Positions 41,434-47,240 of a stretch of DNA of 64,000 nt are shown piece by piece. The notes beneath the pieces are model-generated. The model saw only the letters and a list, made by a program, of their open reading frames with translations, was not told the DNA's origin and searched no databases. The translations under genes were made by a program, and so were the position numbers. The DNA comes from Phormidesmis sp. (GTDB taxonomy: Bacteria > Cyanobacteriota > Cyanobacteriia > Leptolyngbyales > Leptolyngbyaceae). Numbering within the stretch: the first letter of the stretch is position 1; each line of letters begins with the position of its first letter. Location of the stretch: positions 1 through 64,000 of the forward strand of contig CBDFJR010000005.1 in NCBI GenBank assembly GCA_965248535.1, read 5' to 3'.

Positions 41434-42335
41434 GGAGTGTTTTAAAACTACAACCAAAGTTGGATAGAAGCTAAAGTCAGCATGGCAAGGTAGTTTTCCG
41501 CTTTTTTCTCATATCGAGTTGCAATGCGGCGAAACTGCTTCAAGCGATTGAAACAACGCTCTACAACATTTCTGGTTCGGTAGATCGCCTGGTCAAACCG
41601 ACCGCGATGTTTCTCATTGCTCTTACGTGGGATGGTGAAGCGAATGCCGCGACGACGCAGGTAACGTCGGATTGCACCACTGCTATAGCCTTTGTCCCCA
41701 ACCACCCGATGAGGACGCAAGCGTGGACGACCTCGGTGGGGTCGCTTGACGGCTCCTTGTTCCATCAGTTGCTCAAACACGACGGTTTCATGCCGTTCTC
41801 CAACGGTGAGCAAAAACGTGATAGGCAGTCCATTACCATCGCAGCGCAGATGGATTTTGGTGCTGAAGCCCCCTTTCGAGCGTCCTAATGCTTCGCGTTG
41901 CTGCACTTGCTCAATCTCACTGAGCGAACTCTCTGGGTCGAGTGCCCCCTTTTTGCACCCGCCGAGTGTTGATGAGCGCGAATCACACTGCCGTCGACAT
42001 GATGAACCTCCCAGTTCAATTTGCCTTCGGCATCCGCTTGCTGCTGCAAGGTCTGAAGAATCTGATTCCAGATGCCACTGCGTCGCCAACGGTAGAACCG
42101 TCCCGATACCGTCTCCCATGCACCGTAGCGCTCTGGCAAATCGCGCCACGGTGCACCCGTTCTGAATCCACGAAAACGTTGTTTGGGCGACCCACAGTGG
42201 GCTTCTCAGGCGGATTTAAGGGGTTGAGACGTTGCCATTGAGCATTCGTTAAGTTTGCAGTTGGTTGTGGAAGGATCATCCCTGAGTTGTCTCTAGGCGC
42301 AGATAAAACACCTAGATGTTGTTAGAAAAACTCCC
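41433..42335 (-). mobile_element. Degenerate IS5-family element (two-ORF transposase, orfA broken)
   Basis: orfB GRSKGGFSTKIH, GDKGY, YRTRNVVERCFNRLKQFRRIATRYEK; orfA fragments LTNAQWQRL and PERYGAWETV in different frames; imperfect TIR GGGAGTGTTTTAAA / TTAGAAAAACTCCC. Confidence 0.88.
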
Positions 42336-43641: not shown

Positions 43642-44202
43642 ATGAAGCGTCGTCATTTTATACAGCTTGGCGGTCTGTCAACTATTGGGGCAGCAGTTCC
43701 TCTCGTGTTTGAAAGTTTCGGAAGCAGAACATTGCAAGCTGTTGCTGCTGTGCCAAAACACCGAGATATTGTTGCTCTAGAGTGCATGGGAAATATTCAA
43801 GGTTCCAGATGGCTAGATGGAAGAACTGGAAATGGTACAGTTGGGCTTGCTCCTCGGAGAGACGGAGCTTTTACAGGTACACGTTGGCAAGTTTTTGAGG
43901 TGGATTCTGGCATTTACGCATTGAAGTATTTGGGAAATGTTAATGGTTCCCGGTGGCTAGATGGTCGTACCGGAAACGGTACGGTTGGACTTGCACCTAG
44001 AACGGATAAACAATTCTCAGGGACAAGGTGGCAGATTTTTGAGATTAGCTCAGGTATCCTCGCATTCAAGTGCCTGGGGGATGTGGAAGGTTCTCGATGG
44101 TTGGACGGTCGTACCGGCAATGCCACAGTTGGACTTGCGCCAAATACTCCAACACCTGATGGTGGTTTTAGCGGCGCAACTTGGCGGCTCTACAGTGCTT
44201 GA
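43642..44202 (+). CDS. Tat-secreted protein with three ~48-aa repeats (beta-trefoil-like)
   Basis: MKRRHF twin-Arg signal; GSRWLDGRTGN(G/A)TVGLAP x3. Confidence 0.8.
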   Translation: MKRRHFIQLGGLSTIGAAVPLVFESFGSRTLQAVAAVPKHRDIVALECMGNIQGSRWLDGRTGNGTVGLAPRRDGAFTGTRWQVFEVDSGIYALKYLGNVNGSRWLDGRTGNGTVGLAPRTDKQFSGTRWQIFEISSGILAFKCLGDVEGSRWLDGRTGNATVGLAPNTPTPDGGFSGATWRLYSA

Positions 44203-44300
44203 AACCCTACGAAGCTGGAGTGAGAAGCAATCCAGGGCAGGCTGGTAGCGGCTTCTCACACCTTATAATATTGTTGTAAGCCTTTGTAGGGTTTCGGATT

Positions 44301-44516
44301 ATGCTGGCACATCGTATCGAAACGATCATTAATCAGGACAAAACGTTAACATTAGAAAATTTACCATTTCATTCTGGCGAACAAGTTGAGGTAATCATTT
44401 TGTCTCGCCCACGGAGAGAATTTGGACAAAACCGCTATCCTCTTCGTGGAACCACGATTCAATATGTTGATCCTACTGAACCTGTGGCGCAAGATGACTG
44501 GGAAGTTACACGATGA
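44301..44516 (+). CDS. Putative antitoxin
   Basis: 71 aa, LPF..GEQVEVII, EPVAQDDW; ATGA overlap with the PIN gene. Confidence 0.75.
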   Translation: MLAHRIETIINQDKTLTLENLPFHSGEQVEVIILSRPRREFGQNRYPLRGTTIQYVDPTEPVAQDDWEVTR

Positions 44517-44905
44517 TTGTACTCGATACTCGCATATGGATTTGGTGGGTGCATGGAGATGGAAAGCTTACCCGTGAATACTATGAGTACATTCAAGAAC
44601 AAGAATCACAGGGATTGGGAATCAGTGCAATTTCTTGCTGGGAAGTTGCCAAATTAGTTGAATATGGTCGGCTGACCTTGCCCAGATCTGTAGATAAATG
44701 GTTGGATGAAGCTTTGGCTTATCCAGGTATAAATTTTCTGGAGCTAACGCCACGCATTTGCGTAGAATCAACTCAATTACCGGGGGCTTTTCATCGAGAT
44801 CCTGCTGATCAAATCATCGTCGCAACAGCCAGAGTTCACAATTGCCCAATTGTTACAGTGGACAGGAAAATTCGAGAGTATTCATATGTTGAAACTCAGC
44901 CATAA
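44513..44905 (+). CDS. vapC: VapC/PIN-domain toxin
   Basis: MIVLDT, SAISCWE, HRDPADQIIVATA, VTVD. Confidence 0.92.
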   Translation: MIVLDTRIWIWWVHGDGKLTREYYEYIQEQESQGLGISAISCWEVAKLVEYGRLTLPRSVDKWLDEALAYPGINFLELTPRICVESTQLPGAFHRDPADQIIVATARVHNCPIVTVDRKIREYSYVETQP

Positions 44906-44908
44906 GCT

Positions 44909-45692
44909 ACCTAATCGGGTAACCAGGGGATTTTCTCCCCCAGTCCCCACGGCACCCCGCGTGCGGCTCCGCACGGGGCGCGTCCCCAGAAAAGTTTTAG
45001 ACAAGCCAGTTCAATAGAACTGAATATCCAGGGCTGGTTGTGCAGTTAAGCGCCGACAAAATAGCTCCCCCGTTCGGGTTCATCGCCCAGTCGAGCTTTG
45101 CAACTCCTCCCTGCTTTCTAAGGTTCAGCCCTTCACCCTGTCTCACCCATTACGGTGAGTGTTTGGCTACTATGACCTCTGCTGACTTCTGCTCAATCAT
45201 GAGTCCTGTTGCCATGACTCACGCTGCCTGAATGTCCTTAGGGTTCCGTGGCTCCCTAGCCGTTTCCCGCTAGACCTCAATCAGACTCCCGTAGACCCTC
45301 AGACCGCCCTTTGAGCAGATCTCCCCAGATAAGAACGTGAACTGTCTCTGCACAACTGCGTCATTTACTGTGTTCCCTGAACCAAAAGGCTTCATGATGT
45401 TGTGCTCACTTGCCACAGGAATCTCAGCCTTCTATGACGTTTCTGTCCGTCAGCTCGCAGATTTGCCGCTGGCTTCCTTCAGACCCTTCCTCGCGGAAAC
45501 GCCCTTACCTTAAGCTAGTCGTTGTCGTCACTCGGATCTTTTGGGATCATTTGGACGTTGGTTCTCCGACAGGGGACTTTCACCCCATTAGTTCACACCC
45601 ATGCTGGGCGTACACAACACAGTGGAGCGGACGGTATAAATCTCTTGCTTCGTTTCGGTGATATCTGCCACCGCTGAACAGGGTCGTTATGC
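44909..45692 (+). other. Integron attC site (84 bp once the intron is removed)
   Basis: Rejoined ACCTA|AC fits RYYYAAC 3 nt after the vapC stop; inner AGCGG..CCGCT arms; ends GTTATGC at 45686-45692. Confidence 0.72.
44914..45613 (-). mobile_element. ORF-less group IIC (attC-targeting type) intron, 700 nt
   Basis: Minus strand: 5' GTACGCCCAGCATGGGT..GGGGTGAAAGTCCCC; D3-like GAAGTCAGCAGAGGTCATAGTAG..GAAGGGCTGAAC; short D5 ACGCGCCCCGTGCGGAGCCGCACGCGGGGTGCCGT; D6 ending ACCCGAT; flanks TTGT/T. Confidence 0.88.
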
Positions 45693-45881: not shown

Positions 45882-47240
45882 ATGTCTACCTTGTTGGTCA
45901 AGAATATTCATACTCTAGTCACGATGGATGCAGCCCGACGGGAAATCCACAATGCGGCTCTGTTAATCCGAGACAACGGGATTGAGCAGGTTGGAACAAC
46001 ACCAGAGTTGCCTCAAACCGCAGATGAAGTTCTAGATCTACAAGGTCGGTATGTTGTGCTTCCCGGTCTTGTGAATACTCATCACCATTTTTACCAAACT
46101 CTGACTCGTGTCATTCCTGCGGCTCAAAACTGCGATTTATTTAATTGGTTGCAAACGCTCTACCCAATTTGGGCAAATCTCACGCCAGAATCCGTTTATA
46201 TCAGTGCTCAAATGGCGGCGGCCGAGTTGATGTTGTCGGGCTGCACGACGGCAAGCGATCATCTCTACATCTATCCCAACGGCAGCACTCTGGATGATGA
46301 AATTCGAGCTATTCAGGCAATTGGGCTACGGTTTCATGCCAGTCGAGGCAGCATGAGTGTGGGGCAGAGTCAGGGAGGTCTCCCTCCCGATGCTGTGGTT
46401 GAAAAGGAAGCCGATATTTTGAAGGATAGTCAACGGTTGATTGAGCAATATCATGACAATAGTCGTCATGCGATGCTGCGAATCACGCTGGCACCCTGTT
46501 CACCGTTTTCAGTGTCTCAAGATCTGATGCGAGAATCGGCGGCCCTTGCGCGATCGTATCCCGGCATCAGACTGCATACTCATCTCGCAGAAAATAAGTC
46601 AGATATTGACTATAGTTTGGCGACCTTTGGCATGACACCCGGCGACTATGCAGAATCGGTGGGCTGGCTAGGGGAAGATGTCTGGCACGCCCATTGTGTT
46701 CAACTCGACGATCGCGCCATTCAGAAGTTTGGCAAAACTGGCACCGGGGTGGCGCATTGTCCCTGTAGCAATATGCGGCTTGCCAGCGGCATGGCCCCCA
46801 TTCGCAAAATGCTCGATCATCAAGTTCCCGTGGGCTTAGGAGTCGATGGATCGGCATCAAATGATGGCTCAAATTTGTTAAATGAAGCCCGGACTGCTTT
46901 TCTGATGGCACGGGTTCGCGAACTGAATGCCGCCGCGATGACCGCACGCGAGGTTCTGGAGTTGGCAACCCTCGGCGGAGCAAGAGTGTTAGGACGAGAT
47001 GATATTGGGTCTCTAGCGCCGGGTATGTCAGCAGATTTGATCGCGATCGACCTCGATCGTCCTGAGTTTGCAGGTGCTCAACATGACCCGATCGCAGCCA
47101 TAATTTTCTGTCAGGTCAATGCGGTAGATTACAGCTTTATCAATGGTCAAAAAGTGGTTGATCAGGGTCGATTAACCACGATCGAACTGCCAACATTGGT
47201 TGAAAAACACAATCGTTTGGCGCATCAACTCATTGGTTAG
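45882..47240 (+). CDS. 8-oxoguanine deaminase-like amidohydrolase
   Basis: PGLVNTHHH, APCSPFS, HTHLAE, HCPCSNMRLASG, GVDGSASND. Confidence 0.9.
   Translation: MSTLLVKNIHTLVTMDAARREIHNAALLIRDNGIEQVGTTPELPQTADEVLDLQGRYVVLPGLVNTHHHFYQTLTRVIPAAQNCDLFNWLQTLYPIWANLTPESVYISAQMAAAELMLSGCTTASDHLYIYPNGSTLDDEIRAIQAIGLRFHASRGSMSVGQSQGGLPPDAVVEKEADILKDSQRLIEQYHDNSRHAMLRITLAPCSPFSVSQDLMRESAALARSYPGIRLHTHLAENKSDIDYSLATFGMTPGDYAESVGWLGEDVWHAHCVQLDDRAIQKFGKTGTGVAHCPCSNMRLASGMAPIRKMLDHQVPVGLGVDGSASNDGSNLLNEARTAFLMARVRELNAAAMTAREVLELATLGGARVLGRDDIGSLAPGMSADLIAIDLDRPEFAGAQHDPIAAIIFCQVNAVDYSFINGQKVVDQGRLTTIELPTLVEKHNRLAHQLIG

Follow-up and report, generated by a model that had tools for sequence, protein, structure and literature searches.

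The locus considered here raises the question of how a group II intron that encodes no protein comes to occupy an integron recombination site, and by what means its kind could have multiplied. It lies in a 64,000-nucleotide (nt) stretch of the genome of Phormidesmis sp. (GCA_965248535.1, contig CBDFJR010000005.1, positions 1 to 64,000 of the forward strand; henceforth the window), the host genome assembly (G000) being made up of 5 contigs and 99.76% complete. Behind a vapBC-like gene pair the minus strand of the window carries a 700-nt element that, judging from its sequence, is almost certainly a group IIC-attC intron devoid of an open reading frame (ORF). By analogy with known introns of this kind, it would be a non-autonomous intron belonging to a family that probably spread by trans-mobilization. 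The intron and its parts, among them a candidate exon-binding site 1 (EBS1), are as follows:

44914-45613, minus strand: the entire 700-nt ORF-less group IIC-attC intron, beginning GTACG... and ending ...CCCGAT (Rfam matches and five identical copies)
45324-45608, minus strand: domain 1, intron nt 6-290 (RF02001 match; helix 1 and the helices within it in the RNAalifold consensus of the 11 members)
45398-45405, minus strand: candidate EBS1 loop GCACAACA (unpaired in the RF02001 alignment and in the consensus fold)
45184-45323, minus strand: domain 2, intron nt 291-430 (consensus helices 15-20)
45127-45177, minus strand: domain 3, intron nt 437-487 (RF01998 match, consensus helices 21-23)
44984-45123, minus strand: domain 4 remnant, 140 nt, intron nt 491-630 (Shine-Dalgarno GGAGGAG, ATG AAC CCG AAC GGG GGA, then structured RNA)
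44952-44981, minus strand: domain 5 of the short IIC type, 30 nt (RF00029 alignment; catalytic-triad position occupied by CGC)
44916-44949, minus strand: domain 6 (consensus helix 35, 5 pairs with compensatory changes)

Searches with Rfam covariance models recovered significant minus-strand matches to part of domain 1 (RF02001, 45334-45500, 127.8 bits, E 5.9e-26), domain 3 (RF01998, 45128-45223, 63.7 bits) and domains 5 and 6 (RF00029, 44914-44983, 43.5 bits, the gathering score being 40). The last of these was obtained from a 1.2-kb stretch with laxer filters and is absent from the gathering run on the whole window with Rfam's fast filters. A preliminary description of this DNA had recognized group II intron ends, a domain 3, a short IIC-type domain 5 and a domain 6 on this strand, had named a covariance search for the last two as the appropriate check, and had noted a domain 4 of about 150 nt lacking a reverse transcriptase (RT). 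The three matches agree with this reading, as does the ORF list, in which the element contains no RT ORF, domain 4 measuring 140 nt. The exact ends at 44914 and 45613 are defined by the fact that the same 700 nt recur end to end at 100% identity elsewhere in the genome, with differing flanks. Domain 5 begins with GCGC, is 4 nt shorter than the 34-nt Rfam consensus and has the layout of that of the IIC-attC intron of class 1 integrons; PMC7923331 gives CGC, instead of AGC, as the catalytic triad of IIC introns. Domain 6 has a bulged A at window position 44920 (intron nt 694), which is invariant in 11/11 aligned members of the family, and helices 19 and 20 of domain 2 show 5 and 7 pairs with compensatory changes, respectively. 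The letters of the loop GCACAACA in domain 1 are likewise invariant in all 11 members, and its ACAAC is complementary to the 5'-exon end GTTGT (intron-binding site 1, IBS1), suggesting that this loop is EBS1.

The surroundings of the intron explain its position. The genes of the cassette and the two parts of the interrupted attC site are:

44301-44516, plus strand: putative vapB-like antitoxin gene, 71 amino acids (ORF list; 4-nt overlap with vapC)
44513-44905, plus strand: vapC-like PIN-domain toxin gene, 130 amino acids (Pfam PF01850 PIN, 59.2 bits)
44909-44913, no strand assigned: first 5 bases of the R'' box of attC, ACCTA of ACCTAAC (sequence reading and match of the rejoined site)
45614-45692, no strand assigned: larger part of attC, comprising the end of R'' (AC), L'', the central part, L' and R' (GTTATGC, 45686-45692, plus strand)

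The intron is flanked by GTTGT/TAGGT, i.e. a TTGT/T junction, inside ACCTA/AC of the R'' box. Its removal restores ACCTAAC (44909-44913 plus 45614-45615) ... GTTATGC (45686-45692) in a site that starts 3 nt past the vapC stop codon (44903-44905). With a profile built from 11 uninterrupted attC-like sites of the host genome, rather than with IntegronFinder's own model, the larger part alone scores 35.8 bits (nhmmer, E 1.8e-8) and the rejoined site 41.6 bits over positions 1-86 of 87. The preliminary description had proposed both that the site is rebuilt behind the vapC stop and that the intron entered the bottom strand of attC at TTGT/T, running counter to the cassette genes, and the junction and the profile match agree with both. 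When compared with the consensus cores RYYYAAC and GTTRRRY, GTTATGC has a T at one R position, and the rejoined site folds weakly as single-stranded DNA (-6.8 kcal/mol, z +0.85 relative to shuffles). Four free attC-like sites of the genome fold at -14.6 to -22.0 kcal/mol, the set of 20 free sites spanning -4.9 to -22.0. The profile search found only one attC-like site within the window, and neither a second attC nor an integrase was recovered there by the profile and integrase searches. The genes have a vapBC layout, in which the PIN toxin gene is preceded by a small overlapping ORF; this 71-amino-acid ORF has no Pfam or NCBIfam match and is regarded as the antitoxin by virtue of its position. 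Two other genera have the module at 87-90% identity, and a search of the seven genomes of the same genus did not detect it, a distribution consistent with a mobile cassette.

The preliminary description had called for a search for further copies, a solitary one with no RT-bearing parent being more in keeping with a dead relic. The host genome contains six copies at 100% identity (that of the window included), one at 99%, one at 85% and a 130-nt fragment, in addition to an RT-bearing intron that matches nt 1-447 of the window intron at 79%. Each copy lies in a different attC-like site, all flanks are different and the cassettes at the occupied sites are mutually unrelated, such that the family occupies at least eight different sites in this genome. 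The first 3'-exon base is T at 9/9 intron-bearing sites, and TTGT directly precedes the intron in six of the eight ORF-less copies. All nine sites share the layout GCATAACG ... AGCGGC ... GTCCGCT ... GTTGT upstream of the intron, as read on the intron strand, and T-A-(T/G)-G-C or a variant of it downstream. They are imperfect palindromes with RYYYAAC / GTTRRRY cores, and on reading of the sequences the extra unpaired bases are seen to sit on the 3' arm of the intron-sense strand, which identifies this strand as the bottom strand of attC. The profile recovers 29 attC-like sites in the genome at E<0.01 (the 11 seed sites among them match by construction), of which 8 contain an intron. Two genes for integron integrases are also present, their products scoring 467.9 and 466 bits with TIGR02249, above the cut-off of this model, and their frames are open and free of stops. 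Arrays of attC-like sites adjoin both genes and include intron-bearing ones, in which the intron runs counter to the cassettes; attC-like sites in this genome can be regarded as integron attCs. The copy at C2:609290 has a damaged 5' splice site, and 5'-truncated copies, as expected from abortive reverse transcription, exist in the family as well. A comparable situation is seen in another genome (G033, 3 contigs), where six copies of 698 nt that differ by 0-2 nt each occupy an attC-like site of their own. Upstream of the intron there is an attC-like palindrome, and downstream of it a T, at 9/9 sites in G000 and 6/6 in G033. The relatives in G071 and G032 sit behind other hairpins, in one case a hairpin followed by a run of T.

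Within the same order, matches to the element were detected in 37 of 90 genomes. They include full-length ones (nt 1-700 or 8-700) at 77-90% identity in G081, G084, G071, G033, G032, G023, G056 and G047, together with shorter ones: the match in G025 covers nt 58-700, and those in G064 and in an additional copy of G084 cover nt 1-662. An alignment of 11 full-length members from 9 genomes has a mean column identity of 84%. The domain 4 remnant and the junction GGGGGAGC/TA....GTCGGCGCTT are common to 11/11 aligned members, and because they are identical throughout, a single deletion of the protein gene in a common ancestor is implied. As far as the sequences tell, the loss of the RT/maturase gene was thus a single, ancient event at the root of a family present today in Leptolyngbya-like cyanobacteria. 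An exact scan for the junction pattern across one genome per species (185,579 species) yielded 29 matches, 20 of which are true members according to BLAST, the 9 others, in unrelated taxa, being chance matches. All 20 come from Leptolyngbya-like filamentous cyanobacteria, except for those on two contigs of a metagenome bin labelled Rhizobium. As for these two contigs, the members on them (L080 and L083, Rhizobium sp.) are 91% and 80% identical to the window intron, and no relative found outside the host genome is closer than the one on L080; either mis-binning or a transfer probably accounts for them, since all other members are found in cyanobacteria.

The consensus fold of the 11 members computed by RNAalifold is a six-domain structure of 210 pairs, 59 of which show compensatory changes. 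Paired cells amount to 97.7% as against 92.1 +/- 0.3% in shuffled alignments, and pairs changed on both sides to 59 as against 28.8 +/- 3.2, with 0/500 shuffles reaching 59. The shuffle figures overstate the covariation because the sequences are related, whereas the controls in which the structure was slid along the alignment do not, and these give 8-19 pairs with compensatory change. The domain 4 remnant is itself structured, with compensatory changes in its helices 24-33. Given the shared ancestral deletion together with the strong covariation, the lineage must therefore be an old one whose function has been maintained. Two structural variants were also observed within the family. One member (L056:151-873, G081:C710) has an extra hairpin of 22 nt inside domain 1 (alignment columns 140-161). 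In the twintron arrangement of G084:C1 (L017:1380-1560) and G064 (L020), where the ORF-less intron matches only over nt 1-662, a second group II intron begins right after domain 5 (...GGGGTGCTG/GTGCGATTCG...) and is thus nested between domains 5 and 6. This inner intron starts with a canonical GUGCG at its 5' end and carries an RT ORF of its own, the product of which is 29-30% identical to the IIC-attC protein.

The domain 4 remnant provides a clue regarding how a protein encoded elsewhere might act on these introns. It retains the Shine-Dalgarno sequence and ATG AAC CCG (A/G)A(C/T) GGG GGA, the latter matching MNPDGG, residues 8-13 of the relatives' RT. Hardly any variation is seen within the family in the stretch GCGATGAACCCG.A.GGGGGAGC, which is exact in 9 of the 11 rows; the exceptions are G081b, with T for one C and one G missing, and G056, with a final C instead of T. 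The 21-24 nt around the ATG are 90-92% identical to those of the RT-bearing introns, whereas the remainder of domain 4 differs. The proteins of other group II introns bind a stem of domain 4 in which their own start codon lies, and by analogy the retained start region (the Shine-Dalgarno sequence, ATG and first codons) is likely to be a binding site for a helper protein. The preliminary description had further suggested that the last codons of domain 4 (GYSVLLNWLV*) might be a maturase tail. This proposal did not survive comparison of the 11 members: the peptide is not conserved, the frame breaking early in 3 of them and the tail differing in the rest, and the stretch is an RNA hairpin with compensatory changes (helices 30-33).

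The host genome also contains the RT-bearing relative mentioned above:

C2:1673018-1675015 of the host genome (L009/L013): RT-bearing IIC-attC intron, 1998 nt, in an attC at GTTGT/TATGC

It shares the 5' end and the kind of target with the window intron, and to this extent the search for an RT-encoding parent with the same ends, suggested in the preliminary description, led to a real element. However, its ribozyme is only 79% identical over nt 1-447, it has a short and different domain 3 tip and a different domain 4-6 region, and on these grounds it is rejected as the direct parent and is best considered a cousin; the domain 3 tip of the ORF-less family resembles that of the enterobacterial intron and not that of this cousin. 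Moreover, its RT gene is broken: relative to an intact relative it has +3 and +68 nt, a net insertion of 71 nt that shifts the frame. The lesion, which affects the RT 1-2 region (approximately C2:1673852-1673940), consists of an imperfect tandem repeat of 79 nt, and the family model is split over two frames. The 3' exon and cassette of this intron resemble those of the ORF-less copy at C2:1133221. There are two RVT_1 matches and one maturase (GIIM) domain in the genome, the latter in the broken gene. The second RVT_1 match (78 bits, YADD) is a stand-alone retron-like RT of 373 amino acids without a maturase domain (C2, approximately 2381100-2382221; L015:1315-2436), upstream of which lies a TPR-like ORF of 279 amino acids. 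With an intact cognate RT defined as one of at least 70% identity, full length and free of stops, the 90 genomes of the order contain such genes in G035, G076, G077, G030 and G024, while broken RT genes of the right family are seen in G000, G033, G023, G032 and G056. The gene of G033 is split into residues 3-109 and 104-444, approximately 8 kb apart, and contains a TGA; this split region (G033:C1:2197000-2214000, L054) is flanked by two identical ORF-less copies. The RT of the cyanobacterial RT-bearing relatives has 444 amino acids and matches TIGR04416 at 396.8 bits; its only Pfam domains are RVT_1 and GIIM, and it thus lacks an endonuclease domain.

Evidence bearing on movement comes from a close relative of the window sequence in run X1, whose vapBC part differs from the window at 8/615 positions. 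One contig of this run, with 30 nt on its short side, joins 44914 to 45626 without the intron, and therefore represents an empty site. In place of window positions 45615-45625 the empty allele has 12 other letters, and its attC folds as a regular hairpin with one bulged base at -13.1 kcal/mol, versus -6.8 for the rejoined site of the window. It is possible that 5'-exon sequence of the donor was transferred along with the intron in this instance. A general replacement of the 5' exon at occupied sites was examined through the fold energy per nt of 8 rejoined occupied and 20 free sites and is not supported (Mann-Whitney p = 0.57). As to expression, contigs of the metatranscriptome runs X7 and X10 cover the intron at a higher summed depth than vapC, and X3 covers only parts of it. 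A consensus scan for terminator-like sites between 44800 and 45950 gave none.

Taken together, these observations can be accommodated by the following course of events. A copy would be transcribed and its RNA would excise itself, as would be expected of an IIC-attC intron. The free intron would recognize the folded single-stranded bottom strand of an attC, the hairpin of which would take the place of IBS2, while the exon end GTTGT would pair with the loop ACAAC and the next T would serve as IBS3. The RNA would then reverse-splice into the R'' box, and an RT supplied in trans by a related RT-bearing intron would copy it into DNA at the replication fork, the complementary DNA (cDNA) being made by helper RT bound to the retained domain 4 stem. 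The insertion would separate R'' from the rest of attC, which should render the site unusable for the integron integrase, given that only 2 of the 7 R-box base pairs remain (on reading of the sequence). The resulting block to cassette excision, which the preliminary description had envisaged, would matter little here, since the window offers neither a second attC nor an integrase and hence no partner site. The copies of the host genome are probably stranded at present, unless a helper is supplied, because its only related RT gene is broken.

Although we consider this trans-mobilization probable, several findings weigh against it. No intact helper RT is present in the host assembly, despite its completeness, and an intact cognate RT was found in none of the 11 genomes whose ORF-less copy is full-length or nearly so. 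The sole genome with both an intact RT and an ORF-less copy is G035, in which the copy is 5'-truncated; these co-occurrence counts are descriptive, as the genomes are for the most part mutually related drafts. The RT-bearing introns recovered differ from the ORF-less family in the domain 3 tip and domains 4-6, so that they are not direct parents. The identity of the copies could reflect homogenization by gene conversion or by assembly polishing. A consensus scan recovered no sigma-70-like promoter on either strand between 44800 and 45950, and the X7 and X10 contigs cannot prove transcription, strand or splicing, since they are contigs of a multi-copy element with possible DNA carry-over. The first of these points would favor a helper-independent element comparable to the hydrolytic endonucleolytic ribozymes (HYERs), which might move by protein-free reverse splicing into the single-stranded attC hairpin and subsequent copying through a host polymerase or the retron-like RT, or might act mainly as an RNA endonuclease on attC-like DNA. 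That the nearly closed genomes G000 and G033 each hold six copies 0-2 nt apart beside only a broken RT, and that selection on structure has acted strongly on the ribozyme long after its ORF disappeared, would be in line with this. Precedents are the ORF-less IIC introns that cleave DNA, described as HYERs in PMC12990946 and bioRxiv 10.1101/2024.08.31.610620, and the reported protein-free reverse splicing of a IIB1 intron into single-stranded DNA. We nevertheless regard such independence as rather unlikely: cDNA synthesis would still need an RT and no suitable one is known in the host genome, the conserved Shine-Dalgarno/ATG stem resembles a retained protein-binding site, the broken RTs of the right family in the five genomes named above fit a recently decayed helper, multi-copy RT introns are often missed in draft assemblies, and the protein-free result concerns a different intron class in vitro. 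A related and quite improbable proposal is that the old ORF-less lineage is still multiplying without a working group II RT, by a route independent of its own protein. The hint in this direction is the X1 empty allele, in which the 11-12 differing 5'-exon bases form a proper attC stem, while the occupied arm is typical of other attCs. Such an exchanged arm would fit copying from an unspliced donor transcript, or some other recombination-based transfer dragging the donor exon along.

It is also unlikely, in our view, that the window copy is an inert and silent relic stranded after a past burst, with the identity of the copies maintained by gene conversion or assembly polishing. The broken helper gene, the want of a promoter-like site near the copy in the consensus scan, the degenerate attC hairpin without a partner site or integrase in the window, and the damaged 5' splice site at C2:609290 would all be expected of a relic. 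On the other hand, near-identical sets of copies are found independently in two genera, the close relative in X1 has an empty site, and compensatory changes have maintained the RNA structure of the family at 77-90% identity, which speaks for the function of the lineage rather than of each copy. Least probable by far is a domesticated role for the insertion, either as a lock that destroys the attC and freezes the toxin-antitoxin pair or as a module with outward promoters as in S.ma.I2. The small remainder of R-box pairing and the occupation of about 8 of the 29 attC-like sites might be adduced for the former, and the outward promoters of IIC-attC introns documented in PMC3001079 for the latter. 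Against these stand the unrelated cassettes at the occupied sites, the lack of a difference in fold energy between occupied and free attCs, the lack of promoter-like sites in the region scanned, and the fact that the intron's own target rule fully explains the position of insertion. Trans-mobilization by the RT of a related intron remains the reading that we prefer.

As these findings show, the attC-targeting class C introns have a long-lived protein-less branch that is distributed over the integron sites of filamentous cyanobacteria. Neither gene callers nor intron surveys based on the RT can see such ORF-less copies, and because attC sites are split by them, integron finders will overlook these sites or cut the cassettes short. 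A cassette that is hit is probably frozen, in the present case a toxin-antitoxin pair. The repeated pairing of fresh copies with broken helpers also offers a test case for whether HYER-type IIC ribozymes need an RT of their own family to move.

Certain other features of the region and the genome were observed. Ahead of the vapBC pair, a protein of 186 amino acids (window 43642-44202, plus strand) has a signal-like start and three repeats of about 48 residues (…GSRWLDGRTGNGTVGLAP…); no convincing Pfam match was found for it, and the 3' two-thirds of its gene are conserved beside vapBC in G027 (87% over 43778-44914). At a distance of 2 kb from the cassette lies an IS5-like transposase stretch in two overlapping frames (window 41448-42279, minus strand; ORFs of 233 and 84/87 amino acids), probably an insertion sequence with a frameshift. 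Downstream of the intron-bearing site follows an amidohydrolase gene (45882-47240). Elsewhere in the host genome a further match to RF00029 (C5:1439336-1439412, plus strand; L057:2837-2913; 45.9 bits) covers the full 77-nt model and is not of the short IIC type. In its surroundings no match to the models of domains 1-4 and no RT were found; either a fragment or an ORF-less intron from some other class may be present there.

Among known systems, IIC-attC introns have been recognized since 2002-2010 and ORF-less IIC ribozymes (HYERs) since 2024. The window intron shares its general organization with the former. Over 98% of its length, the RT of its cyanobacterial relatives shares 52% identity with the ltrA product (Kl.pn.I3-type) of enterobacterial and Pseudomonas plasmids. 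An intron taken for comparison from the plasmid NZ_CP031121 (L045), where it lies between catB3 and qacEdelta1 in the catB3 attC of a blaIMP-4 class 1 integron, matches the same three Rfam models with closely similar scores (132.7, 62.2 and 48.6 bits). The two agree in the 5' end GTACGCCCAGCATGGG, the 3' end (CTACCCGAT in the class 1 integron intron, TTACCCGAT in the window copy), the 30-nt domain 5, the TTGT/.../TAG junction (TTGT/.../TAGAC and GTTGT/TAGGT, respectively) and the orientation opposite to the cassettes. According to PMC7923331 and to Leon et al. 2010 (PMC3001079), which cites Quiroga 2008 and Leon & Roy 2009, IIC-attC introns enter the bottom strand of attC within R'' at TTGT/T and run counter to the transcription of the cassettes, also in clusters that lack an integrase; Leon and colleagues further document outward promoters in those of the S.ma.I2 type. 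In contrast to the introns of the S.ma.I2 and Kl.pn.I3 types, the window intron encodes no protein, its domain 4 having 140 nt as opposed to about 1.4 kb, its host is a cyanobacterial chromosome with scattered attCs rather than a class 1 integron on a plasmid, and no outward promoter of the S.ma.I2 kind was detected in the consensus scan. In the literature searched, which did not extend to the published HYER sequence lists, no account was found of IIC-attC introns that lack an ORF, nor of the cyanobacterial family that they form.

The likeness to HYERs lies in an ORF-less IIC ribozyme of about 640-700 nt with a short (5-6 nt) target-recognition loop, present in multiple copies in a genome without an intact intron protein; HYERs, for their part, are said by Liu and colleagues, in Science in 2024, to be multi-copy in genomes without the protein. 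The window family differs from them in belonging to the attC-targeting sublineage, and the likeness is one of sequence. The complete integration into single-stranded DNA cited above, by reverse splicing without protein, was that of a IIB1 intron. Cyanobacteria have ORF-less intron derivatives of their own, of the CL2/IIB class, which home to specific sequences and lie beside intact helpers. Zimmerly & Semper 2015 (PMC4424553) describe CL2 introns as almost exclusively confined to Cyanobacteria and splicing in trans by a cyanobacterial intron protein as shown. Like the window intron, these cyanobacterial derivatives are deletion forms that keep the ribozyme and have related RT-bearing introns in the genome that possibly act in trans, whereas the window intron is of class IIC, its target is a DNA hairpin and its helper gene is broken.

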